From contig OZ076409.1 of the NCBI GenBank assembly GCA_964187785.1, positions 26,042,001 through 26,106,000 on the forward strand: 64,000 nucleotides of DNA, written 5' to 3'. A program made the translations under genes and the position numbers. The notes below the pieces were generated by a model. That model worked only from the letters and a program-made list of their open reading frames with translations. It ran no database searches and was not told the DNA's origin. This DNA comes from Amphiscolops sp. MND2022. Lineage: Eukaryota. The number at the start of each line of letters is the position of its first letter. Position 1 is the stretch's first letter. Below, one piece after another: positions 31,179-62,863 of this stretch.

Positions 31179-31606
31179 GTGTGGTAGTAACGGTTGCCAT
31201 GAGCACTTTGTACATCATGTTGGGAGACTTCAACGAACTAGTGGACTACTTCAGCTTCGCAGCCTGGGTCTTCTACTTCATCACAGTGCTGGGTCTGATC
31301 AGACTGCGCTGGACTATGGCTGACGTCAAGAGGGAGTTCAAAGTGCCCATAGTCATCCCCATCCTCTTCTGCATATGTGCCCTGTACCTCATTGTGGCCC
31401 CACTCATCGCGGAATTCGACCCTAAGTACATCATGGCGGTGCTCTTCATCCTGTTCGGCTTCGTCTACTACCTGCCCTTCGTTCAGTGTGGGGTCAAGGT
31501 CAAGTTCATGTACCCCTTGTTCACCTACATCCAGTACGCACTCAACATCGCCACTTCATATTACCACGAAGAGGAGGAGAATGAACAGGATCAAACAGCA
31601 GATAAG
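31179..31606 (+). CDS. SLC7/LAT transporter, exon 5 (3' end uncertain: donor GTTAAT at 31607 or read-through to 31786)
   Basis: LVDYFSFAAWVFY..GLIRLRWT....REFKVPIVIP; hydrophobic TM11-12. Confidence 0.85.
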
Positions 31607-31735
31607 GTTAATCCCTTCCATGTCACTAGTTTGGGTTTGACATGCAGTCAACTCCGTATTTTGCATCCGGATAATTCGGATCTTCGTTTAAATTGCATGT
31701 ATCCGAGCCCCTATTTCGAGACGACCAAAGAAATA

Positions 31736-31910
31736 CAGTGGATCCCGGATATAAGAAACCCTCTTATAAAAAATACCCGCTTATAGTCAATGCGTATCTT
31801 GGCCCCGATAGCCAATTTAATTTCTTTTGAAAACCCGCTTTTAAGAAAGTTCGATTATAAGAAACACCACTAGTCATTCCCGTGACGTTGATTATATCCG
31901 GGATTCACTG
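31736..31910. mobile_element. Tc1/mariner (pogo-like) MITE
   Basis: TA|CAGTGGATCCCGGATATAA ... TTATATCCGGGATTCACTG|TA. Confidence 0.8.
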
Positions 31911-33388: not shown

Positions 33389-34746
33389 CGGAATACTGTA
33401 ATATCAACACGCTTATTACAGAATGTATTCTCCCGCTAGCTGAGCGGTGAGTTAATTCAGCTCGCACAACAACTAATTGCATATTCAAAGATTTCGTAAT
33501 CTTATATTCGTATCATTTGTGTCGTAACAAAATCGTATCATATACAAATTGGATCTGGCTACAATTTGGATCTGGGCACTAATCGTGCACAGATCAGAAT
33601 AGTTTTTGACTATTTTGATGTCAGGCGAACAAATTTATGCTAGTGCTATGATAAATAACTCAAGGAAAGGTAGGCAAATAAAACGTGAAAGGCCAGCGGT
33701 CTTGTTTTAACCCCCAGTGTGGGTTCCCAGTTATATCCGCCCTCCTCCATAAAGAAGTAATTCGGCTGATCTGCTCCTTTTGTTTAAGAAATTGATCGTT
33801 TTCGGAGCCTAGACACACGCTTTTCTAATTCGCCGGCAGGATAAATTTATTCCGTAATTGTTACACTTGCTGTTTGTTTGTGAAAGTTGATTATGTAATA
33901 GCGGAAAACATTTAATGAAGATTGGGGAATAATCTCTTTTAATTCACTGACTGCGCTTCATGATACTTATATTTAATATGCGTGCAATTATTGCCCTAGC
34001 CAAATCCAGCCACTTTCCCAGATCTACAGCTTTGGGTGGTCTCTAAACATGAAGGTATTCTCCCCTTATTGAGACAATTTATCTCACTTGCGAATCACAA
34101 CATGCGCATTGTAAGTGAATGGGAATCGTTCAATCGACCCCTTCCTGAATTTAACCCCCCCCCCCCTCATTTGCGATGGCAAAACAAAACAAAAAGGTGA
34201 AAATGTTTTGTTCTTGCAAATATCTAGGTAAAACTACCAATGCAGTATGGCTCACATTTGCTTTTATCTTCCATTCTGTCTGGGATGGAATAATCAAAAC
34301 TTCTTTACAGCTCAGTAAAATAGTTAACAAAACAGTTCAAAATGAAAAGTAAACATTTGATAATTTCTTTTGTCAAGTTTCTTTTCTTTCATGCATCATT
34401 TTTGTTTGGATTTGATTTAACTGCAAAAGTTGGCAAGATTTTGTTTGCCTCGACAGTGACAGTCTAGTCTCAAGTCAGAAACACCAGTTGTTGCAAATCT
34501 TAACTTTCTTCATCTCCATTTTTCCTTACTGAATCAAATTTTATTGTTTTACTTGTCGAGTCTCGGTAACAAATCTGAAAGTCAGCTAGAACAATCACAT
34601 CTAGGCCTTCGAAATTGAAAATTTTTGCACAAGACGGTCCTCTGCAACTTTTGAGCTATCTTTTTGTTCTCCCTTTTGTCTCGCGTTTTTGTTCTCTATC
34701 TGTTCTTGCGTTTTTGTTCTCCCTTTTCTCTTGCCGATTAAACCCT

Positions 34747-35283
34747 ATGGATTATCTGAGAAGTTTATGGGACCTGGATCAGTCAAGAGTTGGCTTCTAC
34801 GAGTATGGGGAACCTGCTGCATTACTGCCTCCACCACCCAAGAAGCATGAAGTCGCCGAAGAATTGAAGGTCGAAATCTTGAAAACAACGTCGTTGAGAG
34901 ACGAATACCAAAGATCTGGCAAACAAAGAGTACGCCACAGAGCTTTTGTACTTGCTACCGATGGAAAGGGAAAAGTAGGCATCGGTATAAAGGTCAACCG
35001 AGTACAGAAAATAGCCATCGAAAAAGCAACTGATCAAGCCAAATCCGAGATGTTTGAAATTGCTCTCGGAAACTTTGACCCAGAAAAAGAAGAAAAACAC
35101 ACTTTATCTCAACAAGTTCATGGGCAGTACGACAAACTTGAAGTCATTCTAATTCCTGCTGCAACGGGTGCTGGACTGGAAGGTTCCGCAATTGTTCAAT
35201 TTATCCTCCGACTTATCGGAGTCAAGGACTGTATTGTTAAGCCCGAATCTAGTAAGTTTTCTGCTTTTCATCTCTTACTTTAA
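34747..35283 (+). CDS. Divergent ribosomal protein uS5 (RPS2)-like ORF, left arm; possible intron 35252-35345 and short exon to 35377
   Basis: LKVEILK...RVRHRAFVLATDGKGKVGIGIK...AIEKA...AK...HTL....G....V.LIPAATGAGL.....ILRLIGVKDC matches uS5 N- and C-domain patterns by eye. Confidence 0.8.
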   Translation: MDYLRSLWDLDQSRVGFYEYGEPAALLPPPPKKHEVAEELKVEILKTTSLRDEYQRSGKQRVRHRAFVLATDGKGKVGIGIKVNRVQKIAIEKATDQAKSEMFEIALGNFDPEKEEKHTLSQQVHGQYDKLEVILIPAATGAGLEGSAIVQFILRLIGVKDCIVKPESSKFSAFHLLL

Positions 35284-37059: not shown

Positions 37060-37937
37060 TTATTCGCTGTCGCTCACAATCTCCATCCGTCTCCTTTTCG
37101 CTCTTTTTATCCTGTTCACAAACTCGTCATCGCTGAACCAATTGTCAAAATCAATTAGGTATTCCAAGTCTTCTATGGCGTTTGCCTCGTCTTCTGTCAG
37201 TGTCTCGACAATTACGCAGTCGTTAGGGTCTGACTCTTCGTCATCTTCGTGTGCAGTTTCACCTGTATCTGATGCTTCCACTGCCTCATCGTCAATGAAG
37301 GGATTTCTCGGAGGACTTCGCTCCTCAACAGATTCGTCCATGTTACTGAATTGGTCTTCCAGCTCGGAATCACTGTACTCTCTTTGGTGCATGCCTGGAT
37401 CGGGAGGCGACCATGCTTCCATTAACTGTTGAGTTAAAGAGACTGGCCCATCATCACTGACTCGAACTCGCAATGGTGATGACAGAGGGGCATTTGCCAG
37501 CATCGGAGCTTCATCTGGGAATATTTGGCTGATTGTGACTTGCGGATCATTGCCGTTCAATTCGTCCCATGTGGGACTTGATGGTATCTCTTCCTCTTCA
37601 TATCCCCATTCTGGTTCATCCACAATGTCTTGCTCAACATGAACATCTCTGATCATGTAGTGACCATGGGGTAAAGTTGAGATGCCGTCTTCTAATACAT
37701 AACGCTTGTCATCAAAGGAGCTGAGAGACACCTTGTTCGTCTTGATTGTTTGTAATTGGTGCTTTTGCGAGCCTATTCGCATGTTTACAGTCTTGTAGGA
37801 CTCCCCAGTTTTCAATACTTTTTTGTACAGCTCATGATTCAGTTCCTTCTGAGCGAATCGGCAAACTCCCTTTGCCGACAGCTTCTGCCTTCCTCCAACC
37901 ATGATTGAATACATTTTGGGTTTTAGTCCGACAAATT
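37060..37937 (-). pseudogene. Inverted duplicate of the PolB 3' end (part of the left arm)
   Basis: Near-identical to 42861-43738; begins mid-gene at FVGLKPKMYS. Confidence 0.9.
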
Positions 37938-38131
37938 TTATTCCTTACATTAGTGAACAAGAACTATTACGATTTGTAAAACATTTCATTTAATGCTGTC
38001 TTGTCTAATTGAGTTTTATCCTTTAAGCTTTTTTTTCGAAAACAAAGAGCACAAGAATGAATTATTCAAGTAAAAATTTTAAAAAAAAACATCATGGAAT
38101 CAACAAAGCTGCAAGACAAAACAAAAACAAA

Positions 38132-39030: not shown

Positions 39031-39337
39031 TGTCGTCGAACCCGAATAACCCCCGATAGCTCAATTTTAAAACGAAATTTCTCAAAAATAAAATCAAAAA
39101 TCTCCAACTTTGTTGCAAATCAGTTACCCTCACAAGCAAAAATTGTTGAAAACTAGATATTCTCACCTGCAATATTTGATTGAAAATACTATTTCAGATT
39201 GAAACTCAAATTCAAAAATCAAATCAAACAGTTAAAGAAACCGAATTCACTTTTTAAAAAACACTTTCTGAGCCCCTTGGGGTATTTCATTCAACAATCT
39301 GATATGGTAGTTTCAATCAAGTATCTATTCAGTCGAA

Positions 39338-42300
39338 ATGAGAACTTGTGACGTTTGCCAAAAATCGTTTGGAAACAAAAATTTACTTCGTCATCATCGG
39401 CGAAATGTTCACAAAATTCCTGCTTATCTCTTTCCCATGGAATGCAATGTTTGCCACAGGATGGAGCTATCTGTCGCACTAATTGATCAACACTTTCGAG
39501 AAAAACATGGAACACAACTGGACAAAATGTGTGTTTATTGCGGAGTTGGGTTCGATATACCTGAACACTTTTACAAACACTTGGAAGAGAAACACGAACT
39601 TCCACCACCTGCTGAATCAACCAAAGAGAAAACGAACCCAATATCATCAGCTTTTGACGGGGCGCTCAAAGTGTACAAAATTGAGGGATCAGGAGAAAAT
39701 GACTTGATGCAGTTCATGACTGACATCAAACCACAAATTGATCAACTGGTTAGCGAAAATGTAAACCGCACTGCCCGTAAACTGCAGCTAATTTTGAAAG
39801 TTGAGCTTTCACAACCAACAAAAGACGAGGAAACTCAAGTCTTTCTTCGCTCAAACATGGTGCCAGTGTATGGTACTAGTCTACCGCAAGACGATTTCCT
39901 CAGTGCAGTGGACCAGTTACTAAACACTTTGTTTACGTTCACAGCTTCTGGAAGTGGATGGATCTTGGAGAAAATTGTCGATCTGGATGTCAAGTTTGCA
40001 ACATTTAGCCCCATTCGAGGATCTTCCTACTTGCCTACTCCGCCCGAACTGGACGCATCGCACTTGCTACTAAACATACGAAACCGTCAAGATCACAATT
40101 GCTTCTTGTATTGTTTCACAGCCGCGTGGCACCTGAAGCACGGACCATTACTCTATGTCGCTGGTCGAGACTCATTAGCAAAGAGAACTAGCCCAGACAC
40201 TTATTCGCGACGCAACCCATTAGCTCATCAAGCTGAAGGCGAGTTTGAAATGCCAATGGGCTTCGGTCAGATGCTTCGATTCGAAAAATTGAATGATTGC
40301 AAAATCAACGTGTTTAGATACACTGAAAATCAACTGGTTCCCCTGCGAGTAACTCGAGAAAAAGGAGATGGCCTAGAAATTGACCTGTTGCTGGTGGATG
40401 ATGGACAAGAGTATCACTATATTCTGATACTTGACTTTTTGAGACTAGTTTCTATGGTGAAAGGAACCACAACACTGTATCAGAGAGTCCTCTGTAAAAA
40501 TTGTTTCCACATTTGCATGAATGAAAACACATACAGACGGCATCAAATCAGTTGCTTGCAACATGAACCAGCAGTAGTCAAAATGCCAACGCCTGAGAAA
40601 AACAAACTGAAGTTCGCGAATTTGGGTGCCCGGTGGTTCGCACCAGTTGTCATATATTTCGATCTGGAATCAATTATCAAACCAGTTGCAGGATGTCAGA
40701 ATGCAAAACAGCAAACAAGTATCACAGAAATTCATCAACCCAGTGGATTCTGCCTTATTGGAATTGAGCATGGGAATCCTAATCCCGTTTTCATGCAACT
40801 AGAGCGCTCTGAAAACTGCATGGAAAAGTTTGTAGGGGCACTTGAAAAGATTGCACAGGAAATGTATCAAAAGAAGCAAAGCAACCGGTACTTTCGAGAC
40901 TCAGTACCCGAAAGGCCTCAAGAAGCCCAACTTTGTTGGATATGCGAAGGTCAATTCGGAATAGTCAGAGACATCGAGGACGACAAGGTTATTGACCACT
41001 GTCATTACTCAGGAAAGTTTTTGGGATTCGCGCATCCGGAATGCAATCTCAAAAGAAAGACAGTCAATTTCATACCAGTCATGGCCCACAATCTGTCGAA
41101 TTACGACCTTCATCACGTGTGCTTATACATTCACAAGTTCAAACCCGGTTGCAAAGTAGACGTGATACCGAATACTGATGAGAAATACATTACCTTGACG
41201 ATCAGAGTACCTGTGAGGAGCTATCTAGACAAAAACGGACTAACAAAAACAGTGTTTGAGTACTTGCGTTTCATTGACTCGTTCAGGTTTATGGCTTCTT
41301 CACTCGAAAAACTTGCAAGCTATCTGCCAAAAGACAAGTTCAAGATACTGGACAGTTGCTTCGCTGACTATTCGGAATCAGACCGAGACCTTTTGCATCA
41401 AAAAGGGTACTACCCTTATTCGTATTTTGATAGTTTTGACAAGTTTCAAGAAGAAGAGCTCCCGCCAAGATATCAATGGACGGACTCACTGCGCAACAAA
41501 GCGATCATGTTGACTCAAGATGAATGGGAACACACAAAGAAGGTTTATGAACGATTCGCTTGCGCAAATTTGGGTGATTATCACGACCTATATCTTAAAA
41601 CTGACACTCTAATATTAGCATGTGTGGTTGAAGAATTTCGGAGCCTATGCTACACTACCTATGGCCTAGACAGCGCCCATTACTTCACCTGCTCGCATTT
41701 GTCTGGAGACGCCTTCTTGAAAAAATGTCGGGCAGACATTGAGCTTCTAACAGATCGCGAGCACCTAGAGATGGTGGAAAATATGATTAGAGGTGGTGTT
41801 GCATCTGTTTTTGACAAGAGGTTCTTCAAAGCGAACAACAGGTACGTGGCCGAGCATAACTATAATGACTACAACACTTACGGAGTGTTATTAGACGCAA
41901 ACAACTTGTATGGGGGTGTTATGGAAAAGTTACCACTGCCATTGAATAGCTTCGAAACAGTTCAAAACATTGATCTCAACAAAATCTTGGAAACAACTAA
42001 CGACTCTGAAGAAGGATACATTCTAGAAGTAGACTTGCATTACCCCGACAAACTTCATGACGGACATCAAGATTTTCCGCTAGCTCCAACAAAAGAGCGA
42101 ATATACTACAAAAGCCTTGGAGAGAAGCAGCAAGAGCTTCTAGAAATAATGGGTGAAACTAGACCTTATAGTCAGGGGACGAAGTTGATTCAGTCACTGT
42201 CAAACAAAAGCAACTACACTGTCCATTATATAACACTGAAGCTCTACGTTAGCCTTGGCATGGAAGTGAAGAAAGTACATCGAGTGTTGAAGTTCAAACA

Positions 42301-43738
42301 AACAAAATGGTTGAAACCATACATGGAGCTAAATACCGCAAAGAGAAAAGAATCTCGAAACAAGTTCGAAGAGAGTTTCTTCAAATTAATGAATAACTCA
42401 TGCTACGGAAAAACGCTCGAGAGCAAGCGAAACCGCCTCACTGTTCAGTTAATAAGCAACCGAGAAAGTCTTTTGAGGAGAACAGACACCCCGTTCTTTT
42501 GTGAGTTTAAAATCTTCAATGAAAATCTTGCAGCTATTTCGTCAAGGAAAAGATCCATCTTGTGGAACAAACCAACAATAGTCGGAGCATCTGTTTTAGA
42601 CTTGGCCAAATTCCACATGTTCAATTTCCACTATAATGTAATGAAAAAGCACCTGAACTGCTTCGTGTTATATTCTGACACAGATTCTCTGTTGTATGAG
42701 ATTAAATACACAGACTTTTATGAAGAGCTAGCAACCAATGATGAGCTCCGCCAGCACTTTGACCTCTCCAATTACCCTAAAGAACATCACCTCTATAACG
42801 CTGATAATAAAATGGTCACACTCAAGTTCAAGGATGAACTCGGAGGAGAGCCAATCGAAGAATTTGTCGGACTAAAACCCAAAATGTATTCAATCATGGT
42901 TGGAGGAAGGCAGAAGCTGTCGGCAAAGGGAGTTTGCCGATTCGCTCAGAAGGAACTGAATCATGAGCTGTACAAAAAAGTATTGAAAACTGGGGAGTCC
43001 TACAAGACTGTAAACATGCGAATAGGCTCGCAAAAGCACCAATTACAAACAATCAAGACGAACAAGGTGTCTCTCAGCTCCTTTGATGACAAGCGTTATG
43101 TATTAGAAGACGGCATCTCAACTTTACCCCATGGTCACTACATGATCAGAGATGTTCATGTTGAGCAAGACATTGTGGATGAACCAGAATGGGGATATGA
43201 AGAGGAAGAGATACCATCAAGTCCCACATGGGACGAATTGAACGGCAATGATCCGCAAGTCACAATCAGCCAAATATTCCCAGATGAAGCTCCGATGCTG
43301 GCAAATGCCCCTCTGTCATCACCATTGCGAGTTCAAGTCAGTGATGATGGGCCAGTCTCTTTAACTCAACAGTTAATGGAAGCATGGTCGCCTCCCGATC
43401 CAGGCATGCACCAAAGAGAGTACAGTGATTCCGAGCTGGAAGACCAATTCAGTAACATGGACGAATCTGTTGAGGAGCGAAGTCCTCCGAGAAATCCCTT
43501 CATTGACGATGAGGCAGTGGAAGCATCAGATACAGGTGAAACTGCACACGAAGATGACGAAGAGTCAGACCCTAACGACTGCGTAATTGTCGAGACACTG
43601 ACAGAAGACGAGGCAAACGCCATAGAAGACTTGGAATACCTAATTGATTTTGACAATTGGTTCAGCGATGACGAGTTTGTGAACAGGATAAAAAGAGCGA
43701 AAAGGAGACGGATGGAGATTGTGAGCGACAGCGAATAA
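39338..43738 (+). CDS. polB: Protein-primed family B DNA polymerase (Maverick pPolB), 1466 aa, intact
   Basis: Three N-terminal C2H2 fingers; GSGW; OTU-like DHNCFLYC..HY; ExoI FDLES; EndoVII/HNH CWIC..DHCH.SG..G.AH..CN; ExoII HNLSNYD; KGYYPY; ExoIII YLKTD; motif A LDANNLYG; motif B KLMNNSCYGK; motif C YSDTDS; KMY; AKGV; DDKRY; acidic tail. Confidence 0.96.
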   Translation: MRTCDVCQKSFGNKNLLRHHRRNVHKIPAYLFPMECNVCHRMELSVALIDQHFREKHGTQLDKMCVYCGVGFDIPEHFYKHLEEKHELPPPAESTKEKTNPISSAFDGALKVYKIEGSGENDLMQFMTDIKPQIDQLVSENVNRTARKLQLILKVELSQPTKDEETQVFLRSNMVPVYGTSLPQDDFLSAVDQLLNTLFTFTASGSGWILEKIVDLDVKFATFSPIRGSSYLPTPPELDASHLLLNIRNRQDHNCFLYCFTAAWHLKHGPLLYVAGRDSLAKRTSPDTYSRRNPLAHQAEGEFEMPMGFGQMLRFEKLNDCKINVFRYTENQLVPLRVTREKGDGLEIDLLLVDDGQEYHYILILDFLRLVSMVKGTTTLYQRVLCKNCFHICMNENTYRRHQISCLQHEPAVVKMPTPEKNKLKFANLGARWFAPVVIYFDLESIIKPVAGCQNAKQQTSITEIHQPSGFCLIGIEHGNPNPVFMQLERSENCMEKFVGALEKIAQEMYQKKQSNRYFRDSVPERPQEAQLCWICEGQFGIVRDIEDDKVIDHCHYSGKFLGFAHPECNLKRKTVNFIPVMAHNLSNYDLHHVCLYIHKFKPGCKVDVIPNTDEKYITLTIRVPVRSYLDKNGLTKTVFEYLRFIDSFRFMASSLEKLASYLPKDKFKILDSCFADYSESDRDLLHQKGYYPYSYFDSFDKFQEEELPPRYQWTDSLRNKAIMLTQDEWEHTKKVYERFACANLGDYHDLYLKTDTLILACVVEEFRSLCYTTYGLDSAHYFTCSHLSGDAFLKKCRADIELLTDREHLEMVENMIRGGVASVFDKRFFKANNRYVAEHNYNDYNTYGVLLDANNLYGGVMEKLPLPLNSFETVQNIDLNKILETTNDSEEGYILEVDLHYPDKLHDGHQDFPLAPTKERIYYKSLGEKQQELLEIMGETRPYSQGTKLIQSLSNKSNYTVHYITLKLYVSLGMEVKKVHRVLKFKQTKWLKPYMELNTAKRKESRNKFEESFFKLMNNSCYGKTLESKRNRLTVQLISNRESLLRRTDTPFFCEFKIFNENLAAISSRKRSILWNKPTIVGASVLDLAKFHMFNFHYNVMKKHLNCFVLYSDTDSLLYEIKYTDFYEELATNDELRQHFDLSNYPKEHHLYNADNKMVTLKFKDELGGEPIEEFVGLKPKMYSIMVGGRQKLSAKGVCRFAQKELNHELYKKVLKTGESYKTVNMRIGSQKHQLQTIKTNKVSLSSFDDKRYVLEDGISTLPHGHYMIRDVHVEQDIVDEPEWGYEEEEIPSSPTWDELNGNDPQVTISQIFPDEAPMLANAPLSSPLRVQVSDDGPVSLTQQLMEAWSPPDPGMHQREYSDSELEDQFSNMDESVEERSPPRNPFIDDEAVEASDTGETAHEDDEESDPNDCVIVETLTEDEANAIEDLEYLIDFDNWFSDDEFVNRIKRAKRRRMEIVSDSE

Positions 43739-45520: not shown

Positions 45521-46057
45521 TTAAAGTAAGAGATGAAAAGCAGAAAACTTACTAGATTCGGGCTTAACAATACAGTCCTTGACTCCGATAAGTCGGAGGA
45601 TAAATTGAACAATTGCGGAACCTTCCAGTCCAGCACCCGTTGCAGCAGGAATTAGAATGACTTCAAGTTTGTCGTACTGCCCATGAACTTGTTGAGATAA
45701 AGTGTGTTTTTCTTCTTTTTCTGGGTCAAAGTTTCCGAGAGCAATTTCAAACATCTCGGATTTGGCTTGATCAGTTGCTTTTTCGATGGCTATTTTCTGT
45801 ACTCGGTTGACCTTTATACCGATGCCTACTTTTCCCTTTCCATCGGTAGCAAGTACAAAAGCTCTGTGGCGTACTCTTTGTTTGCCAGATCTTTGGTATT
45901 CGTCTCTCAACGACGTTGTTTTCAAGATTTCGACCTTCAATTCTTCGGCGACTTCATGCTTCTTGGGTGGTGGAGGCAGTAATGCAGCAGGTTCCCCATA
46001 CTCGTAGAAGCCAACTCTTGACTGATCCAGGTCCCATAAACTTCTCAGATAATCCAT
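45521..46057 (-). CDS. uS5 (RPS2)-like ORF, right arm copy
   Basis: Translation identical to the left-arm copy. Confidence 0.8.
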   Translation of the reverse strand: MDYLRSLWDLDQSRVGFYEYGEPAALLPPPPKKHEVAEELKVEILKTTSLRDEYQRSGKQRVRHRAFVLATDGKGKVGIGIKVNRVQKIAIEKATDQAKSEMFEIALGNFDPEKEEKHTLSQQVHGQYDKLEVILIPAATGAGLEGSAIVQFILRLIGVKDCIVKPESSKFSAFHLLL

Positions 46058-47413
46058 AGGGTTTAATCGGCAAGAGAAAAGGGAGAACAAAAACGCAAGA
46101 ACAGATAGAGAACAAAAACGCGAGACAAAAGGGAGAACAAAAAGATAGCTCAAAAGTTGCAGAGGACCGTCTTGTGCAAAAATTTTCAATTTCGAAGGCC
46201 TAGATGTGATTGTTCTAGCTGACTTTCAGATTTGTTACCGAGACTCGACAAGTAAAACAATAAAATTTGATTCAGTAAGGAAAAATGGAGATGAAGAAAG
46301 TTAAGATTTGCAACAACTGGTGTTTCTGACTTGAGACTAGACTGTCACTGTCGAGGCAAACAAAATCTTGCCAACTTTTGCAGTTAAATCAAATCCAAAC
46401 AAAAATGATGCATGAAAGAAAAGAAACTTGACAAAAGAAATTATCAAATGTTTACTTTTCATTTTGAACTGTTTTGTTAACTATTTTACTGAGCTGTAAA
46501 GAAGTTTTGATTATTCCATCCCAGACAGAATGGAAGATAAAAGCAAATGTGAGCCATACTGCATTGGTAGTTTTACCTAGATATTTGCAAGAACAAAACA
46601 TTTTCACCTTTTTGTTTTGTTTTGCCATCGCAAATGAGGGGGGGGGGTTTAAATTCAGGAAGGGGTCGATTGAACGATTCCCATTCACTTACAATGCGCA
46701 TGTTGTGATTCGCAAGTGAGATAAATTGTCTCAATAAGGGGAGAATACCTTCATGTTTAGAGACCACCCAAAGCTGTAGATCTGGGAAAGTGGCTGGATT
46801 TGGCTAGGGCAATAATTGCACGCATATTAAATATAAGTTTCATGAAGCGCAGTCAGTGAATTAAAAGAGATTATTCCCCAATCTTCATTAAATGTTTTCC
46901 GCTATTACATAATCAACTTTCACAAACAAACAGCAAGTGTAACAATTACGGAATAAATTTATCCTGCCGGCGAATTAGAAAAGCGTGTGTCTAGGCTCCG
47001 AAAACGATCAATTTCTTAACAAAAGGAGCAGATCAGCCGAATTACTTCTTTATGGAGGAGGGCGGATATAACTGGGAGCCCACACTGGGGGTTAAAACAA
47101 GACCGCTGGCCTTTCACGTTTTATTTGCCTACCTTTCCTTGAGTTATTTATCATAGCACTAGCATAAATTTGTTCGCCTGACATCAAAATAGTCAAAAAC
47201 TATTCTGATCTGTGCACGATTAGTGCCCAGATCCAAATTGTAGCCAGATCCAATTTGTATATGATACGATTTTGTTACGACACAAATGATACGAATATAA
47301 GATTACGAAATCTTTGAATATGCAATTAGTTGTTGTGCGAGCTGAATTAACTCACCGCTCAGCTAGCGGGAGAATACATTCTGTAATAAGCGTGTTGATA
47401 TTACAGTATTCCG

Positions 47414-47515: not shown

Positions 47516-47572
47516 GTAAAACTAAACCCCCCTATTTCTAACAAGGGTATATAAAATCAAACTACTACCAGG

Positions 47573-50500
47573 TTCATCGCTTATATTCAAACGAAAAATC
47601 TTTTCGAAACACTGGCTGGCACAGCAGTGGAACCCGTTGAACCCGCAGCTTTGGGAGACGCTCCGACGAATGAGCAGAGAGAAGGTCATAGAGTTGCAAC
47701 AGAGGAGTTTGAAAACAATAAGAAGAAATTCCGAAATGACAAAAACACACTGTGGTGCATGCTGGCTCTGACACTTGATTCGACAAGTCTAATGCTGATA
47801 CGACATGATTGTGTTGGAAAAGATGGCCTTGGTGACGGAACCAGAGCATGGAATCTTTTGAAGGAAAGATTCAGAAGTGAAGAATCACCAACAGTTGTGG
47901 CTCTTGTATCTCAAATTGCCAGAATGCGACTGAAACCAGACGAGGCACTGCACGAGTATTTCATCAGAGCACAAGAATTGATGACAAGGCTGAGTGGTGC
48001 AGGTGAACGCATTTCGGAGACGATATTCATGGCGTTGGTTCTCAATGGACTTCCTGAGAGATTCGAGAATTTTATGGTGCAGGAAAGTTTCAACCCATCC
48101 GCCAACTTCACTGAGTTGAGATCGAGATTGACAAACTTCGAGGAAAGCCGCAAGCAACGCAATGGCGAAGAAGAGCAGCAAAATCAGCATGTGGCAATGC
48201 CGTCATGGGGGAAGTTCGAGAAGAGTAGCAGTAAGTCAAAAAGTTTTAATTATAAAAAAAGGAAAAGGCCGAGGAAAGCAAGCGATTGAGTTGTTATTGC
48301 TGTGGTAAAGTCGGTCATATAGCCAAAAATTGTTTTTTGAGAAACAAAGCAGAATGTCGAAAATGTGGTAAAAAAGGACATTTAGACGTTACTTGTAGGA
48401 GTCAAAGTACGGAGAAAACCGCCGTACAAATGCCCAACTCTCAAAGTCTACATTCAGTTCACCTGAGTTCAGGGAGCAAAGTAGTGAGTAAGGACAAAGT
48501 TTTAATTGACTCAGGATGCACAGATCACATTCTGACAGACCGAAAATTTTTCCAAAACCTCAGAGAGATAACGTCTAGCGTAAAAAATCCGGATGGAAGT
48601 TTTTGCAAAATTGAAGGTATTGGAGACGTTGAAGTCGAACTTCGTAATGAAAATGGAAGTACAGACACGTTGATAATGAGGGATGTACTTTTCGTACCAA
48701 GTTATGAAACAAACTTAGTTTCAGTGTCAAAATTAGTCGAAAAAGGACACAGAGTCGAGTTCAGCTCGAACTGTTCGCAATTGAAAACTGAAAAAGGTGC
48801 AAACTACGGAATTGATAGAGAAGGAAGTCTTTATACTATCCAAATGAAACTAGTTGAAAAACCTTTGAGCTTTGCTACGCATGCAAAGAAAATGACTGAT
48901 TTGGAAACATGGCACAAAAGATTATGTCATGCAAATGAGCGAAGTACAAGACTCACGGTACCTAGTTTGAAGAAGTGTGAGTTCTTTTGCGAAACGTGTG
49001 CACTTAGTAAGATTCACGAGAGGCCAGTACCTCGTGAAGCAGGTTCGAAGGCTAGCAAAAAGTTAGAAAGAGTGTATACTGACATAATGGGGCCAATTGA
49101 ACCCGCAAGTATCAATGGTTATCGATATGCTATCACTTTCATTGACGAGTTCACGAAATACGCAGTTGTGAAATTCATGAAATTCAAGTCTGAGGCACTT
49201 GAAAAACTAAAGCAGTATGTAGCGGAAGAAGGCGTACCCGAAAAACTGCGTAGTGATAACGCAAAAGAATATAAAAGTCAAAGTTTTGAAAAATTTTGCG
49301 TTGAGAACAAGATAAAGCGGGAATTTACAGTTCCAGAGACACCGCAACAAAATGGAGTAGCTGAAAGATACAATAGAACGCTAGCAGAGATGACTAGATG
49401 TAACTTGATTGAAGGCAAGCTTTCTAAAATGTACTGGGTTCGGGCGATGGCAACAGCGAATTACACTTTGAATTGCATAACGAACGAGAAAACTAAAAAA
49501 TCTCCATTTGAACTGTTTTTTGGTAAAAAACCTGACTTGACAAAACTTCGGGTATTTGGATGCATAGTGTTCATGCAGAAACGAAAACAGCAACGAAGTA
49601 AACTAGAACCTAGAGGCGTCAAATGTAAGTTTTTAGGCTACGATGATTGTAGTCCATCTTACGTTGTTCAAGAGATTGACTCAGGTCAAATTCATTTTGC
49701 GAGAAATACTATCTTCAATGAGAACGAGATACCGAGCTCAGATTTCAGCGGAGACAGCGTTGTTAGGTCAGATGACGGTTCCATTATCGATATTTTTGAA
49801 AAGATTGCTGAAAAGAAGGCAAATGAAAATTCAACTAATCAAGAGAATGTTGAAACTACAAATTTGCGTACATATGCGCAAGAAGAAGAACAATCCGATG
49901 AAGTCGAAAGTCTCGTTAATGATCAAGCACTATTTGCACATGACGAAGTCAATGTGCATTGCAGTCCAGCTAAGAAAGTTTTTTTTCCACGATAGCCAAC
50001 TTCATAATAAGCGCCTTTTAGAGAAAAGCCAAAACCCCAGAGAGATTCGAACCTGCAGCCTCCCGATTGTGCGGCATAAGTGTTAACCACTGTGCCATAA
50101 GGACGTTATTGAAGGAAGTTGAACTGTTGAATATATACGCATGCGATTAAAATAATATATATACGCATATTAAAATAATCGTTGTCTTCGTCATGTGTTG
50201 CGAAGCACCGCTTCGCCTCTGTGTTGAGGTATGTAATGATGCCACCATGAGTCAAGTAGTTAAAGAAGAGACTGAAGAAAATGACAATAGAGCACAAGGT
50301 ACTTCGTACAGACCTAACCTCAATGACTGTCAAATTGTTCTCGGAGGACAAACTTTTAGATGTTTGCCCCGTGAAAAAATAGTTGATCGCTCAGAAGCGA
50401 GTGAGAAGAAAGAAAAATCACCGTTGAAAAAACTTTTGAGACGAGAATCTCGAAATAGAAGCGTACCAACTAGATATGGTACTACATACACGCATAAAAG

Positions 50501-52050
50501 TGAGAAAGTTGATATTTTTTAGCCAAAAACATATCGTGAAGCTGTCGAAAGCTCAGACAAAGCATTATGGTTAGTAGCAATGCAGCAAGAAATGAATGCT
50601 TTTGCTGAAAATGAAACTTGGAGTTTGGTAGAGAGACCAAAAGATAAAAATGTGATAAACGGAAAATGGGTCTTCAAAGTAAAACTGAATGAAGAAGGCG
50701 AAATAGACAAATATAAAGCAAGATATGTAGCTAAAGGCTATGCTCAAGTGGAAGGAGTTGATTTTAATGAAACATTCGCTCCAACATGTCGACCTGAAAC
50801 ATTCAGAACAGTGTTAGCGATAGCTGCAAGTAGAAATGTTAGCATAGAGCAAATGGATGTAAAGTCTGCATATTTACATTCTGAAATTCAAGAAGAAATT
50901 TACCTAGAGCAGCCTGAAGGATTTGAGAAAGGGAAAAATTTAGTGTGTAAACTGAAAAAGTCTATATATGGCTTGAGACAAGCAGCAAGAAATTGGTACA
51001 ATAAATTACATGATTTTTTGCTAGAAAAAGAAATGACAAAAAGTGCTAACGATCCGTGTCTATTCACAAGAAAAAGTCAAGATAACTTCCTGTACATCTT
51101 AACGTGGGTAGATGATTTTCTGATAGTGGGAAGTAAACCCGAGGACGTTCAAAAACTGAAATATAGTCTTTCCCAAAACTTTAAAATGGAAGATAGGGGC
51201 AAAATCAAACCCTTCTTAGGGCTCAGGATTAGCCAAAATGAAGATGGTATTAGTGTAGATCAGGAAATGTTCATCCAGAACGTGCTTAGAAGGTTCGGAA
51301 TGGAAGATTGTAAGCCTAATGAAACTCCAGCTGAGATGAATCTCAAATTAGAGAGAAGTAGCGAACCGAGTGTGATATAGACGTAACAGCTTATAGAAGT
51401 TTAGTTGGATCATTGCTTTATGTGTCAAAACAAACAAGTCCTGATGTCACTTGGATTACGAATCAGTTATCACGTCATATGCAAAGTCCAACGCAACAAC
51501 ATTGGATTGCAGCAAAAAGAGTTTTGCGATAACTGCAATTCACGAAGACAATGAAGATTGTTTATGACGGAAATTGCGACCTAATACTTCAAGGTGCATC
51601 AGATGCAGATTGGAGTGGAGATGCATCAGATCGGAAGTCAACCACTGGATTCTATTACAAGCTTAGTGACAGTAGCGGAGCAATCAGTTGGAAATGCAAA
51701 AAGCAAAACACAGTCGCCTTATCAAGTTGTGAGGCAGAGTACCATTCATTCCGCAGATGAAACCAACACAAATTGCGGAAGACAATCAGAGTTGCATAAA
51801 ACTATGTAACAATCCAGTATTCCATAAAAGGTCGAAACACATGTCGACAAAATTTCACTACATCAGAGAGAAAGTGGAAGATGGAAGTGTGGAAATATTC
51901 TATCAACCAATTGAAGAAATGGCAGCCGATATTTTCACCAAAGCACTGGGAAAACTGAAGCATGAGAAGCATCGAAACTATTTACTTGGAGAACACCTGT
52001 TGAAAGATGCAGACTTATCCTATAGTGGGAAATTACCTGGAAAAGTCTGA
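47573..52050 (+). pseudogene. Copia gag-pol with frameshifts and stops
   Basis: Two CCHC knuckles; protease LIDSGCTDH; WHKRLCH; integrase YTDIMGP, LRSDNAKEY, PQQNGVAER; RT QMDVKSAYL, WVDD; RNase H SDADW..RKSTTG, EAEY, EDNQSCI. Breaks at ~48287, 49937, 50522, 51380, 51531 and ~51750. Confidence 0.93.
49937..50197. mobile_element. 261-bp MITE (CAC..GTG ends, 3-bp TSD TTG; CMC/CACTA-like) containing a tRNA-like segment
   Basis: CACATGACGAAGTCAATG / CGTTGTCTTCGTCATGTG; minus-strand TGGCACAGTGG..GGTTCGAATC within ~50031-50104. Confidence 0.75.
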
Positions 52051-55000: not shown

Positions 55001-55488
55001 AAACGCAATATAGTTAGAATATAACGTCAAAAATTCGGATGGTATTGAAAAAATAATTGGTGGATAAATATTGAGAAAACCAAATATCAGACAAAAAATT
55101 AACCTTTTGAACAGTCTCATAGTGCCGAAAAAAGAAAAAAGAGGATCCTGTGGGACTTTTTAGCATCCATGCTCTGGCAAATTATCACAAAAATTGAGGG
55201 GGGCCTTTGAAGACATTTTTAAAATTTCGAAAAGAGTCTCACAATGCCGAAAAAATCAGCAGGGTGGACCTTTTATTTAGTCTCGTTCGGTTTTGCATGC
55301 TACGTTAAAAAAAACGAAAAAAATGAAGGGAATTCTTTGCACAAACTTAGATGCGTTTCCGCAGGCCGGACTTGGCTGGTCCAGTAGTTTAGTAGTTTTA
55401 GTGGTTTCTGTAAAAAGTGTCCACTACGCGTGCATTCTGTTATCTGACGAAACGAACTACTAAAATGCGCTAACTAAAAATCACCTTG

Positions 55489-55718
55489 AGTCTGGCACGA
55501 TGCACAAAAAAACATGGTCATCGATGGGAAAAATGCATACAGAGATTTTTTATGAATTTCAAAGCCGCGTTCAACGCGGCTTTGAAATTCATAAAAAATC
55601 TCTGTATGCATTTTTCCCATCGATGACCATGTTTTTTTGTGCATCGTGCCAGACTTTTCAAGTGTTGTGGGTTTCAGCTTAACAAGTTGTTAAGCTGAAA
55701 CCCACAACACTTGAAAAG
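55489..55718. repeat. Two abutting perfect palindromes (83-bp arms centred on 55572; 32-bp arms centred on 55686)
   Basis: Read directly; each has a 1-nt spacer. Confidence 0.95.
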
Positions 55719-56831: not shown

Positions 56832-57934
56832 TCACATAGAGAACAAAGGCAAGTCCATGAAGCAAACTGAAATCTTGCGATTCACTTCAAATTCAAGAGG
56901 CATCTCTTCTGTTTTGCCTCCGATGCAATTTGCAGGACCCGTGAAAAACACTTCATTTTCTAAGATTCTGAGTCTCTTCTCAAACCAGATACACGCTTGG
57001 CCACCCCAATACCTGGTGATAACCTCTTTTCCATCTGTGCTTCTCAGCAGTACATTTCCATGCTCATCGCGCGACGTTTCATAACCCAGGTACAGAAACT
57101 GCTTTGGTTCGTTTTGAGGTGCCTCGAGCCAACCTCTTGAGAACAGGTAGTATCTCCAAACATAGTCAATTTCTGCCTCGTCGCGAGGATAAAAAAGTGT
57201 CGCTTGCTTTGTTTCACAAGACGAAACATGACTGGTGAAATTTACACCTGAGCCGGAATGCTCTATGAAAAAGAAACATCTCAGGAAGTGAACATTTATA
57301 TGCCCGTGATTATCGCCGCATTTTTTCTCTACATTTGTTGATTGGATTATGTCTTCCAAAGCTTCATTCAGTACAATTTTCTCCCCAGATAAACTGTTCA
57401 ACTTTCGCCGGCCTCCCAAAAAAGGATGTTCCATGCTCTGCAGGTAAAAAACTACCAAAATACAAATAACACATAACTTGAGCACAGCCAAAAGAGCAAA
57501 ATATCTGCGAAAAAGATAGTTTCCTCTAGATTTTTTAGAAATGCGGGTTTTTTGAGGCAATGATTGCTGCTGTGTTTTAGATGTCTCGTTTTCCGGTTTT
57601 TCAACTCTGTTCATCAACAGGCTCTTGAAAAAAGTTCCCATGGCTATTTGGAATGGTTTGAAGATGATAAGCAACAAAAACGGATTGGCTTGTGAGTAAA
57701 TCATCTGAATCGTAACTCTGTAGAGAGCTACATACTTATAAAGCGAGTATGCCAAAGTTGGCTCCGTGAATCTTCCTTTCTCTGTTAAATCAACTAGCAG
57801 CATGACGTAATTTGGAGACCAGCTGATCACCCAAATAACCAAACTGATGCTGAAAGCTATAGACAAATTCCGATTGCGCTCCTCATTCCTCTCACGTTTC
57901 ATTATCACTCTGCAAATGCCAATGTAAAAGTAAC
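56832..57934 (-). CDS. GPCR exon 3: end of TM5, TM6-7, extra TM, C-type-lectin-like domain
   Basis: YFYIGICRVI; WVISWSPNY; YSQANPFLL; hydrophobic YFALLAVLKLCVICILVVFY; C..RCFFF...NFTSHVSSCETKQATLFYPRDEAEIDYV...YLG. Confidence 0.75.
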
Positions 57935-58257
57935 CTACCGGTCGCGGGGGTGTTAAAGCAAATGTGATTACAACAATAGCTTTCCTGGTTTTTTTTTAAA
58001 TACCAGAATCAAAGAACTCGATAGTATTTCGGGTACAGAATCGAACTATTTAAAAACGAAACGTTCTGTAGTATTCATTAGCACGCGTTTTTCATTCTAA
58101 TGGTCCTGGGTGTAATCCTTCCCGTGATTCGGTGAAAAATTAAAGAATAGTTTTACTTGATGCAAGTTGAATCCCGCGAGGACATGGCTTAATAGTTTTT
58201 GATGAAATTTGGGAAAAATCAAGGAAAACTGCGAGCTTTTTCCTATTTTTTACACCC

Positions 58258-58566
58258 CTGAAACGCTAGCTGGTATGACGAAAAAAATTAATGCTTCGAC
58301 GAGTACTCTGTTCCGTTCCCGATAGAGGAATCCTTGACAGTTGAGGTTGAAATTGCTGATGCTGAAATGCAGTTCCCCATACTCCGCGTTGTAATTGCGG
58401 ACGCTCTGGTAGTCGAAAAAATCAGGAATCTCTAGGTTCATTCTTATGGCATTGGCGATTATTCCTGAACAAGTCAGTAAGGTTATGAATATTGAAATCA
58501 TCCACAAGACTTTTGTAGTCAAGATTTTTGACGTTGGGTGACACACAAGAACGTAGCGAATGAAAG
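58258..58566 (-). CDS. GPCR exon 2: end of TM3 to TM5
   Basis: AFIRYVLVCHP (DRY-like), TM4, ECL2 Cys, LIFFVIP. Confidence 0.8.
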
Positions 58567-59644
58567 CTGTGTTCAAGTAAGGGATGGGAATATATTGATT
58601 CATTTTCAATGCTCTTCCTGAGAAAAATACCTACTATTTGTTTCATCTCGCACAAAAATTAAGGCCAAATCATAATTTCACATGTCTATTAACTACCGTA
58701 TTATTGAAAGAAACAGTTCGATTTCAATTAGTTTGTTATGTATGTCATAAAAAATATTGAATCATTTCTCGAAATAAAACTTGAAATTCAAGGTTGTTTC
58801 CGTTATCCACAAGAGTTAGTAACAAACTCCTTGCATTCATTGATTCAGCTAAGTGAAATACCAGTCACGCACTTTTGGCACTCAGATAACGACGCCACTT
58901 AGTGCAAAAGGTCTTGGAACTCTTGACAAGATCTTGCATATTCCCCGTTTATTCTTGAAAGCCTTAATACGATCTTGTTTATTACGAGCTTGCTTTAAAA
59001 CGAGCTCCTTGCATTACAAAAGCCTCCTTGTCGCAGGGCTATCCGTGCAGCACCGTGAAAAGCATTCAACCCCTCACCCAATTCAAAATACCCGAAGCCT
59101 CAATAAACTCTAAATCCCCGAAACGGATGCCACAAACCATCAAACTTTTACTTCAACTTTAGATTGCTCAAAATATTTGTTGTTATGTTTTGTTGTTGCG
59201 CGTTAATGAACTGAATCGTCTGCAAGGCGGGAGTAACGATATTGTTGCTCTATACAGGTCAAATCTCGACTTTTAGCTACATTACCTCATTTGTGAAACC
59301 GTGGTATCTTATTTGTATCACTCCGTAACATATTAAAATTTGCAGGACGATTACAGCATAAGTATGAGGAAATCTTTTAAAAACAGTAGGATGTTCTGAT
59401 CAGAAAACAGCATTACGATGACACACGCGCCGGTTCTCAAGCATTATGCTGCATTATGGGGTTTGTATAACACAGCATATGCGTAATTTCTGTTGAAACA
59501 GCTTGATGAATATTCACGCGTTGGTGCTCACATATTATACTGTTTCATGCTATTTGCATAAAACAGCATTTGCCGAACAAAACGCCCGCCAAGCACCTGC
59601 ATACTTTCCGCTAAAACTGTAACGCATCAGCGACATCGTATCTC

Positions 59645-60885
59645 CTAGGCAAACGCACTACCAACTACGCCATGGCGACTAGACTTAATTGATTGGAGTG
59701 GTGTTAAGTGGAGTTTTGGCAGAATTTGGAAAAAAAACGCAACACAGACAATAATTCTCATCCCCCATTATATGTGGACGAAAAATCAATAGTGTTGAAA
59801 AAAAACAACATCGTTTGAGCGATACTTTCAACTAATGCGCCGCTGTCACAGCGTTATATTTAGACTTTCTTTGTAAAGGTTGTAAAGGTATTTTTTCGTA
59901 GTATTGGCCCTAGGAACAAAAGTTAATATGAGAACTGTTTGAACGGTAATAATGTTACCAAAAATAACGTCCAATAAAATCACTTAGGAAAAAACTCTGA
60001 AGAAACATAAATTTATAATCATTCACCTGAAGTACTTGAACAAAACAGCTGCCAAATTAAACAAACAACCTCTCTTCAGTGCTAACTGAAAGCTCAACTT
60101 TCTCAACAGTTTCTCGTTCTGTACGCGATATTTTTTTCTGGGATTTCAGTTCACCCACTTTGTTCAAACTTTGAAGAAATCCGCGCCTAACTTTGTTTTC
60201 ATCATGGGAAATAACAGAAATAGGCGCGATCAAGGAGAGTTGAATCTAAATCTCTAGATAGAGGAAAACACTTCAGAAACAAGCTCCGTATATGATCAAT
60301 CGACTTTATTTACAGTTTATGAAAATGTTGATTGTATTTCTTACGAAAATTTAGGCAGTGAATTGATTGAACCTTCACAAACTAGCAATGAAACAGAAAT
60401 TGTTTCTCAAAGACTGGCAGAGCAAGACAACACAAAAACTCCTAATAAGAACCTTGGTAACAGTCTTATCAAGGGTGTCAAGAAACTGTCTACCTAGTGA
60501 AACAAACAACATTACTACACTACTATACTATTACTACATTACTACTATACTAGGCAGACGCACTACCAACTACGCCATGGCGCCATGGCGACTAGATTTT
60601 ATTGAATGGAGTGGAGTGGTGTTAAGTGGATTTTGGCAGAATTTGGAAAAAAACGCAACACAGACAATAATTATCTTCCCCCATTATATGTGGACGAAAA
60701 ATAATAAGTGTTGAAAAAAACAACATCATTTGAGCGATACTTTCAACTAATGCGCCGCTGTCACAGCGCTATATTTATACCTTCTTTGTAAATGATGTAA
60801 AGGTATTTTTTCGTAGTTTTGGCCCTAGAAACATTAGATTTTTATGAAAAGTGTTTGAACGGTGAGAATGTTACCAAAAATAACA
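59645..60885. repeat. Two ~325-bp direct repeat copies (59645-~59968, 60550-~60885) within GPCR intron 1
   Basis: ctaggca.acgcactaccaactacgccatggcg ... aatgttaccaaaaataac in both. Confidence 0.85.
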
Positions 60886-62241
60886 GTTACCGTGAGAAAA
60901 ACAGGAAAGGAACGATGTTCATGATAGTCTTATGAAAACACTCTCGGACATGGCAGCAACAAATTCTGATAATTACGAACAAGAATCGTGTGTGATTTTT
61001 GTCAAAAAATTTTTAATATTAGAAGAAATTAAAAATTGGTGTCTCAATTCCGAAGCGAAAAATTCACAGAAAAGAAACGAATCTCTCAGAAAGAAAACAA
61101 AATCCTTTGTTAAAATCTCAATCATTCGCTGCAGGTAGATTATACTGCACTACGAGTACAATTTGGCTGAGAGTCGAACCATTCGGCTTTTTATCTGAGA
61201 GGAGGTCAAATTTCGAATTAGGTGTTTGGGATGTTCTCCGGGAGATTGTCTTCTTGCGAACCGACCTCGAAATTCCAATGGCATTAAGGTCTGACATCTC
61301 GAGGAGCCTAAAATAAGAATGAGTAGCTCACGAGCTAAGAATCAGAGCTAAGACCATTGTACAGCAACGGGAAAAGGGACACAAGCACTGTATTCTAAAT
61401 TAAGCAGAAAGACTCATTTTCCACTATTTTTGACAGTCAGTAGCAACATGCTAAGCAGTGCGCAAGTTTCAATCTAAATTCAGTCTCAGCGTATTTAGCA
61501 CTTGGCTAATTGAGTCTTTTTACGCATAGTTCTTTCGTTTTTTTTCGGGTCAGCTTTCGGGTGTCTCTGTCTCTTTCTAGTGATTTCGTCCTTTTCAATT
61601 CTGGTATTTGAACTGACACGGGCACCATTAGAGATAAATTATAGTCCGGTCGAATTTTCCAACTGTTGAGCATGTCTATAATAGGAAGACGTTACATATA
61701 ACTTTTTCAGCACTTGTGGTCTGGAATTTCAGTAAGTTCCGGGTCCGATTTTGAAGCAAATCGTTGATGTTTAGATTGTTTTCTACATAACATTAACCTT
61801 CGATCGATTGCACGCCTGTAGCATGTTCATTTTAATGAAACGGCGGTTCTAGAATGTAATTTTGATAAAATCGCTTCTTTCAGGGGCGTCATACAAAACT
61901 TTTTTCAACGGTTGCAAAGGCATCGCAGTGAGGTGATATTTTTTTGAAAATGATATTTTTTTGTGAAAAAGAAACAAATTTTCTCACAAAACCAGGTAAT
62001 TCTTTTTTGTTGGTTCACATCAAAAATTGAGGTTTCTTCGGGCTTATTTCAGTATTCAGAACACTTTCGACTTTTGAGCGTCTTACAAAAGACGAAGAAA
62101 TTCCAACATTAGTTTTGTTTTCTTTCTGTAGATTTAAGCAATTGATCTTTTTTGCTGTTTTGGCAGCTTATTCGAGGCAACTTCTTCATTCTCGTTTGTA
62201 AAGTTTGTCCACATTTTTTTAGCAAAACGGTTTTCTCATCC

Positions 62242-62863
62242 CTGTGCCGACAATGCACCATCCTGTCGAGTACTCATTCAACATTGATCGTAGGAAGATA
62301 ATAATACACCCCGAGTATGAGTTTTCAGAACCATGCATAGATCTCTCAAACACATTTTCGGAGGATTTAAGCAAAAATATCAAAGAAAACTTGAATGTCT
62401 TCTTCACTTCTCTCACCATATTGTAGCCTCGAACTTCAGCCATGAAATTGGCAACTCCAGGGCCAATTAGATCTGTTGCAGCTTGGATGCACAGAGGCAA
62501 AAACTTTAGATCCCGAAGTTCCTTCTCGGTCAAGCAGAACACAATCAATGATAAGTTCAAGAAAATGCAGGAAACACTCAGCATGCAGCTTCCAACTGCT
62601 TTCCACAGAAACGAAGGGTACACAATTTCCCACGAGTCGAAATCATAGTAAGAGTCTTCGAATCGGTCCGGGGGAATCCCCTCTGTTCCCTGGGGTGATG
62701 TAGTTATACTTTCTGGAGTCGATGACCATCCAGAATGCCAATGTCCAGGAGGATACCACCATGTGGAAAAATGAGGCAGGGTGGGGAAGTGTGATCCAGA
62801 TTGTTCGTAGCTCCTTGGATATGCGCTCCCAAATTGCGGCATTGAGCTATGTATTGAGCCCAT
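62242..62863 (-). CDS. Rhodopsin-like GPCR exon 1: N-terminus to TM3
   Basis: TM1 CIFLNLSLIV, LR, TM2 QAATDLIG, TM3 C..FLRSMLNEYSTGWCIVGT. Confidence 0.8.

Follow-up and report, generated by a model that had tools for sequence, protein, structure and literature searches.

Predicted eight-helix class A receptors ending in a C-type-lectin-like domain form a large gene family in Amphiscolops sp. MND2022

The analyzed stretch, referred to as the window, comprises 64,000 nucleotides (nt) of Amphiscolops sp. MND2022 (assembly GCA_964187785.1, contig OZ076409.1, positions 26,042,001-26,106,000), and coordinates below are those of the window. Its minus strand carries a gene for a predicted class A G-protein-coupled receptor (GPCR) in which the seven transmembrane helices (TM1-TM7) are followed by an eighth hydrophobic segment (TM8) and a C-type-lectin-like domain (CTLD). 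Three minus-strand segments (62863-62242, 58566-58258 and 57934-56832) were joined into exactly 677 codons plus a stop, with no internal stops. Exon 1 (62242-62863, 622 nt, an open frame matching family profile positions 3-131) holds the start codon, the N-terminus, TM1, TM2 and most of TM3, with N1.50, D2.50 and C3.25 present. Exon 2 (58258-58566, 309 nt, an open frame matching profile positions 109-214) encodes the end of TM3 (IRY), TM4, extracellular loop 2 (ECL2) with its cysteine, and most of TM5. Exon 3 (56832-57934, 1103 nt, a single 387-codon open frame) encodes the end of TM5, TM6 (SWSP), TM7 (NPFLL), helix 8, a basic tail, TM8, a stalk, the lectin-like domain and the stop, so that everything from TM6 to the stop lies in one open frame. 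Putative intron 1 (58567-62241, 3675 nt) falls within TM3 and putative intron 2 (57935-58257, 323 nt) within TM5; both are in phase 1 and have the form CAG/GG...AG/ (slashes mark the exon borders).

In the predicted protein, the TM1 Asn lies at residue 103, the TM2 Asp at 131, IRY at 210, SWSP at 348 and NPFLL at 394. The tail on the cytoplasmic side is 53 residues long and holds 11 K/R against 3 D/E. The predicted TM8 (aa 457-475, 57441-57497 on the minus strand) was placed by hydropathy and family alignment; this 19-mer has a Kyte-Doolittle (KD) value of 2.88, the maximum of the protein. The long-form CTLD (aa 516-668, 56862-57320 on the minus strand, predicted extracellular) spans C516-C668 and was assigned from family profile matches, a paralog model and the cysteine pattern. 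A hydropathy scan (KD ≥ 1.2) recovered seven of the eight segments, with TM2 below threshold. Exon 3 alone matched 7tm_1 (PF00001) at E 0.025 and 14.5 bits (curated cut-off 30.5 bits), and Atlas look-alikes of the full-length protein scored only 0.77-0.78. A joined 677-aa protein had already been proposed in an earlier, sequence-only reading; its length, frame and motifs were confirmed here, and its dependence on two GG-AG introns, which that reading had missed, was added. The closest family members on the same contig are L008/L041 (25.93 Mb, ~160 kb away) and L062 (29.03 Mb, ~2.9 Mb away), the latter being closest to the window copy in TM5-TM7 (54%) and having an intronless core.

The same architecture recurs in the genome. 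In separate searches with 150 scored candidates each, 137 matched the TM8-plus-domain module and 149 matched the TM5-TM7 part (these are matches, not copy numbers). All 21 module matches with open frames above 600 codons (603-721) run unbroken from the seven-helix core through the eighth helix into the domain, and the fusion therefore needs no splicing guess. At the best 30 TM5-TM7 loci (window included), the domain was found in the same frame in 21, in a downstream frame within 1.5 kb in six and further downstream in two, while L144 gave no resolved linkage; the domain is thus linked to TM5-TM7 in 29 of 30. Given the single frames and the linked loci, a chance neighborhood of two genes was rejected. 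The fusion is spread across the whole tree of 49 models with median identities of 32% for the core and 29% for the domain, and for this reason it is considered old within the lineage and no splicing artefact. The architecture is real and belongs to more than 100 related genes in this genome.

Homolog searches returned 6, 12 and 1 ENA proteins, several of them identical or near-identical to loci of this genome. A single match of foreign look, P0019 (161 aa, with DRY), is a fragment that breaks off ahead of TM7, and no relative of the same architecture clearly from another species was returned by these word-based searches, which are weak evidence of absence. In one clade (L003, L006 and L007 with L063 and L064; contig C9, 7.27-7.45 Mb), the seven helices and the TM8-plus-domain module lie in different exons with an intron between them, making forms with and without the module possible.

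The core was compared by using a family profile of 42 rows, and conserved positions were counted in 49 models with x.50 numbering assigned by motif. The profile matched NTSR1 (E 8.6e-12), followed by chemokine, opioid and somatostatin receptors, and 27 of the 42 rows matched 7tm_1 at E ≤ 0.1 (best 3.7e-10). L009, which like L021 is an intronless paralog, was modeled with AlphaFold2; the model had a mean predicted local distance difference test (pLDDT) of 78.5 and a predicted template modeling score of 0.64; it formed a seven-helix bundle plus helix 8 (helices at pLDDT about 80-95) and aligned to class A receptors at Z 22-23 (BRS3: Z 23.2, rmsd 3.2, 260 aligned; Foldseek E 1e-6). Class A anchors were present at N1.50 (47/47), D2.50 (46/49), C3.25 (49/49), R3.50 (48/49), the ECL2 cysteine (48/49), P5.50 (48/49), Y5.58 (47/49), W6.48 (49/49), P6.50 (36/49), N7.49 (49/49) and P7.50 (36/49), and the window model carries all x.50 anchors together with the TM3-ECL2 cysteines. 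A basic motif in intracellular loop 3 (ICL3), RNRNL, is conserved in the family. By profile, model and anchors, the core is a class A (rhodopsin-family) GPCR fold.

For the C-terminal domain, a profile built from 34 domains matched a tetranectin-like chain (E 6.2e-4) and then tetranectin, CD69, CD94 and CLEC2D (tetranectin and CD69 chains at E 6e-4 to 1e-2), with CTLD-type chains, judged by name or alignment, making up 14 of the 19 rows at E ≤ 5. Atlas look-alikes of the domain (score 0.93-0.94) carried Lectin_C on 29-40% of members. In the L009 model the domain follows the order beta1-alpha1-alpha2-beta2...beta5 at a pLDDT mostly > 85. Foldseek with the whole model matched annotated viral C-type lectins (best E 7.2e-4, probability 1.00), and PDB fold searches with the whole model returned GPCRs and were thus silent on the C-terminal domain. 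The six long-form CTLD cysteines are near-invariant across the family (49/49, 49/49, 49/49, 39/39, 37/38 and 39/39), and the WIGL-like strand is of the W-x-x-x-L-G type. As modeled, the domain is a C-type-lectin-like fold of the long form.

A motif scan of 44 domains for sugar-binding motifs found no WND and no QPD, and EPN in one. The EPN of two aligned members lies before the beta-2 strand, off the sugar site, and the residues preceding the third cysteine are unlike a calcium-site-2 sugar site. The domain is probably not a calcium lectin, judging by these residues. A clade of L026, L027, L028 and L030-L038, most of them near 43 Mb on contig C9, has an expanding Tyr-Asp (YDYDYD) tract within the long domain loop, and several of its members terminate directly after this tract; the tract is a possible tyrosine-sulfation or charge patch.

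The TM8 region was aligned in 40 rows, two of which are the same protein. A 19-residue segment with KD ≥ 1.6 lies between TM7 and the domain in 38 of the 40, and K/R are in excess before over after this segment in 37. The segment lies 25-68 residues past TM7, leaving a Ser/Thr-containing loop of that length, and in every row it is 39-58 residues from the first domain cysteine. Beyond helix 8, the L009 model has a helix of modest confidence at 388-417. Of 49 models, 46 carry N-glycan sequons in the stalk plus domain and 6 in the tail, and one site within the domain (N-L/F-T/S) is conserved; together with the near-invariant cysteines, this bias indicates an outside or luminal domain. From hydropathy, charge bias, sequons and cysteines, it is predicted that TM8 crosses the membrane and that the domain lies outside.

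Selection was estimated from dN/dS pooled over 13 close pairs, which are incompletely independent, after three saturated pairs were excluded. Values were 0.32 for TM1-5, 0.24 for TM6-helix 8 and 0.27 for the domain. Purifying selection acts on core and domain alike, and the domain is constrained as much as the core.

The two introns of the window copy were scored against the family profile. The GG-AG joins of introns 1 and 2 reached 93.5 and 98.7 bits, whereas the best GT-AG joins gave 66.5 and 67.3 bits, a deficit of 27 and 31 bits. Intron 1 can also be cut in a GT...AC register of equal length, which scores 2 bits above CAG/GG...AG. Gene models using GT-AG throughout were rejected, as none leaves TM3 and TM5 intact, and the GG-AG joins restore gap-free colinearity with the closest paralog. 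The position of intron 1 is shared with L097 (GG donor), and the codon position of intron 2 is also interrupted by an intron in L065 (GT-AG) and L083 (GC-AG). After 5% neutral drift, 677 codons would stay stop-free with P 0.006. Intron 1 holds several old repeat fragments, 70-80% identical to their best scored kin (40 of 2411 candidates scored), while its ends remained unmatched, and no second copy of intron 2 was found in a genome search. A young transposon was rejected as the source of either intervening sequence, since the searches brought up no other copy of the ends of intron 1 or of intron 2. A paired-end stem as the reason that these introns splice was also rejected (p 0.22 and 0.10, not significant). 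The 677-aa protein exists only if both CAG/GG...AG introns are spliced, and we regard such splicing as quite likely.

A survey covered 48 junctions in 60 paralog loci plus the window, of which 19 are sharply defined by homology. These comprise eight GT-AG, one GC-AG, five GA-AG and four GG-AG junctions and one without an AG end, and 18 of the 19 have G...AG ends against 2.2 expected by chance. Seven additional junctions contributed three GG-AG and two GT-AG, with two undefined; for the GG case of L132 the GT alternative scores 6 bits lower, and for that of L137 the margin is < 3 bits. Of 22 G...AG junctions fixed by homology, nine are GT. The other 13 donors (one GC, five GA, seven GG) all come directly after an exonic CAG; A occupies +3 in 11 of them, and intron 2 of the window copy is one of the two exceptions. 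Non-canonical donors occur in the window copy, L047, L049, L070, L072, L073, L083, L097, L131, L132 and L137. One frame-breaking GA-AG intron is common to three paralogs (970, 427 and 398 nt) whose dN/dS is 0.20-0.44 in core and domain.

RNA-supported introns with GA and GG donors have been described in the copepod Eurytemora affinis (available text of PMC5714493 and PMC7072748). As far as the available text of PMC5714493 goes, those introns likewise have exons ending in AG, mostly A at +3, a normal AG acceptor and apparently recent gains. In contrast to E. affinis, the GA/GG donors reported here are drawn from homology within one gene family; by analogy, their use may be genome-wide. At L057 (about 3774-7899), the TM3 junction reads CAG/GT...AT/ at the same position as the GA-AG intron of L083, and either its acceptor is mutated or it belongs to yet another non-canonical type. 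Of 22 introns, 7 pair their first 25 with their last 35 bases in a stem that exceeds interior controls in strength (p ≤ 0.05), namely 3 of 9 GT and 4 of 13 non-GT (L044, L049, L052, L070, L073, L074 and L083), which suggests transposon-derived or structure-assisted introns.

Taken together, the reading that we moderately favor is that of a co-receptor fused to its GPCR, in which a TM8-tethered lectin-like domain captures, independently of calcium, a ligand that is a protein or lies on a cell surface, and the core signals. After helix 8 and the short basic tail, the eighth helix would return the chain to the outside, where the stalk would hold the calcium-free domain beside the outer face of the receptor. 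The domain would capture a protein or surface ligand, or else set dimerization and surface delivery, and the core would pass the signal along the conserved R3.50-Y5.58-W6.48 path to a presumed G protein. The simplest origin would be that a type II lectin-receptor-like gene became fused to a GPCR gene and that the fused gene then multiplied, because the module matches such a receptor from the tail to the C-terminus. Ligand class, G-protein coupling, and fusion with expansion are what we infer. The rhodopsin-like core, the eighth hydrophobic helix, the C-terminal CTLD and an added module arranged like a type II lectin receptor, all proposed in the sequence-only reading, agree with the profile, model, hydropathy, charge, sequon and cysteine evidence above, and the paralogs of the same architecture for which it recommended a search were recovered. 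It had missed that the gene belongs to a family of more than 100, and its suggestion of a glycan sensor found no support because the domain is without calcium or sugar motifs.

A more far-reaching version is held only tentatively and ranks well below the fused co-receptor. Here the family would be a new receptor class whose more than 100 diverged copies serve as a recognition repertoire for microbes, symbionts, prey or self. Ligand choice would fall to the tethered C-terminal domain instead of the seven-helix pocket, and this domain would trigger the G protein directly.

Several observations weigh against the co-receptor reading. Position 3.49 is acidic in none of the 49 models and 7.53 is Phe in 25, Tyr in only 15 and Leu in the window copy, so that the canonical D/E-R-Y is absent, NPxxY is often altered and normal G-protein coupling is not assured; the family is therefore an atypical class A member, though these motifs vary among accepted members. 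PDB profile matches cover only the first half of the domain, and PF00059 (Lectin_C) was detected at E ≤ 0.1 in 7 of 34 domains (best 0.0044), that of the window not among them. In a Pfam search the window domain by itself matched no family; with its single-sequence fold from exon 3 also unusable (pLDDT 38), the lectin call for this copy rests on its family. Across the pieces of the window copy, Pfam searches returned nothing beyond the weak 7tm_1 match in exon 3. In the window copy the third core cysteine, kept in 37 of 38 family models, is replaced by Leu (a private Cys625 might pair instead, going by sequence), and one N-glycan sequon (aa 426) lies inside the supposed cytoplasmic tail. TM8 and the stalk are the least confident part of the L009 model (pLDDT about 46-74), and the tail, TM8 and stalk are the least constrained (pooled dN/dS 0.62). 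Several of the 21 long frames stop short of the last cysteine, and frameshifted members (L005, L010, L066 and L078) occur, consistent with birth-and-death turnover. With respect to splicing, the closest paralog of the window copy is without either intron, the single intron checked in a neighboring transporter gene is GT-AG, and 11 of 15 U1 gene copies have the standard 5' end ACTTACCT. No special donor-reading small nuclear RNA was seen among these copies, because most carry the standard end, and a variant U1 5' end was rejected as the explanation of the GG donors. Altered 5' ends occur in the U1 copies L108, L109, L110, L114 and L115, that of L110 having a C-to-T change within the donor-pairing stretch.

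Other explanations have to be set against the fused co-receptor. The domain could be a true glycan-binding lectin, with a site that is relocated or works without calcium and detects sugars of microbes or symbionts, as would suit a lectin fold in a large and diverse family (median domain identity 29%), and the CTLD of Dectin-1 reportedly binds glucan independently of calcium. The missing WND and QPD, the single EPN and the residues before the third cysteine speak against such a site, and several of the closest solved matches (CD69, CD94, CLEC2D) bind proteins; we consider this explanation unlikely. Slightly less credit is given to the view that the window copy is dead or broken, with its intervening sequences retained or cut at GT-AG sites that harm TM3 and TM5. 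Both donors are GG, short direct repeats at the ends of the intervening sequences resemble target duplications, a GT-AG join dropping eight TM5 residues exists, and the uninterrupted closest paralog, the lost core cysteine and the frameshifted paralogs all fit a decaying gene. Such decay is hard to square with intervening sequences whose ends found no other copy in genome searches, with repeats in intron 1 just 70-80% like their kin while the three coding segments are still stop-free, and with intron positions that are both common to diverged paralogs in a family where GA/GG donors recur under purifying selection.

Two further proposals concern the family as a whole. The receptors might not signal through G proteins and might instead be scavengers or adhesion anchors, the domain binding cargo and the core driving uptake in the manner of atypical chemokine receptors. 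The lack of D/E at 3.49 in 49 of 49, the greater frequency of Phe than Tyr at 7.53 and a C-terminus that cannot serve as a free cytoplasmic tail would all be expected of such proteins. The near-invariance of R3.50, Y5.58, P5.50, W6.48 and N7.49, the conserved RNRNL of ICL3 and the Ser/Thr-containing loop of 25-68 residues left after TM7 would not, which makes this proposal distinctly improbable. Least credible of all is that the eighth helix serves as an internal signal or as a site of cleavage from which the lectin-like domain is released to act apart from an ordinary receptor; a poorly conserved stalk modeled at low confidence and the intron between core and TM8 exon in some paralogs would allow it, whereas the stalk length kept at 39-58 residues in 40 of 40 rows and the persistence of the fusion across the whole tree speak against it.

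The added module most resembles CD69, CD94 and CLEC2D, which are group V C-type-lectin-like receptors. With these type II CTLD receptors and tetranectin it would share a basic cytoplasmic stretch, one helix and a stalk, and it shares a long-form CTLD with an extra N-terminal Cys pair and no sugar-site motifs; it differs in that a whole GPCR replaces the cytoplasmic N-terminus. No signaling adaptor motif was seen in the module, no search having been aimed at such motifs. The core resembles class A peptide and chemokine receptors (PF00001; NTSR1, CXCR3, BRS3) in its seven-helix fold (Z 22-23), TM3-ECL2 cysteines, helix 8 and the residues N1.50, D2.50, R3.50, P5.50, Y5.58, W6.48 and N7.49. In contrast to these receptors, the family has a hydrophobic residue in place of the DRY acid and in many cases NPxxF, and it continues into an eighth helix and a folded domain at the C-terminus; orthology to any named receptor is not claimed because structural-alignment identity is 10-19% only.

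RAMP and MRAP are single-pass accessory proteins, each with one helix and a small ectodomain, that shape GPCR ligand choice and surface delivery. Those are separate proteins of unrelated folds, whereas the module described here is fused, and the analogy is functional only. Latrophilin-type adhesion GPCRs have a lectin or other ectodomain joined at the N-terminus. Sponge and choanoflagellate GPCRs with N-terminal domains (available text of PMC4302439 and PMC12716839) likewise join a recognition domain to a seven-helix receptor. Unlike those GPCRs as far as they are portrayed there, and unlike the latrophilin type, the present domain is C-terminal, would need an extra helix to get outside the cell and follows a class A core without a GAIN domain. 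GPCRs with C-terminal domains do exist, and GPCR-PIPK and GPR155-DEP share with this family a folded domain after TM7 in one chain; in the available text of PMC12716839 these are signaling domains directly after TM7, and an extra helix or disulfide-bonded domain is not described for them. No earlier description of an eight-helix GPCR with a C-terminal lectin domain was found in the open full-text literature by titles and abstract openings, a scope outside which supplementary domain tables and subscription journals lie. The architecture is likewise not described in the available text of PMC12716839 (in which "lectin" appears 0 times), PMC4302439, PMC12909245, PMC12849515 and PMC9911081. Both parts are known folds, and their combination is apparently undescribed so far.

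The C-terminus of a class A receptor is normally intracellular, and GPCRs carry their recognition domains at the N-terminus. If the predicted topology is true, an eight-helix family with an outside C-terminal domain, maintained by selection in more than 100 copies, would constitute a natural co-receptor fused to its GPCR and would allow one to ask directly if a class A core can be driven by a C-terminal domain tethered to it. Routine annotation would miss the family, because the domain falls below Pfam cut-offs and many members seem to use GA/GG donors that gene finders reject. These donors, if used, would add another animal genome to the few known for frequent use.

Elsewhere in the window, two exons of a transporter gene (30132-31786, plus strand), which we take from sequence likeness to be an SLC7/LAT-like amino-acid transporter, are joined by a canonical GT-AG intron. 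A 1475-codon frame (39311-43738, minus strand), presumably a Polinton-type family B DNA polymerase with zinc fingers, has a duplicate of its end at 37060-37944 (minus strand). This frame and its duplicate are flanked by two identical 234-codon frames (34579-35283 and 45521-46225), which we assume to be related to ribosomal protein uS5, and the arrangement resembles either a local duplication or an element that carries cargo. A gag-pol region in several frames (47555-51380, plus strand) is presumably a Copia-like long terminal repeat retrotransposon. Lastly, a near-perfect long inverted repeat (55474-55689) with mirrored translations on both strands lies ~1.1 kb downstream of the receptor stop.

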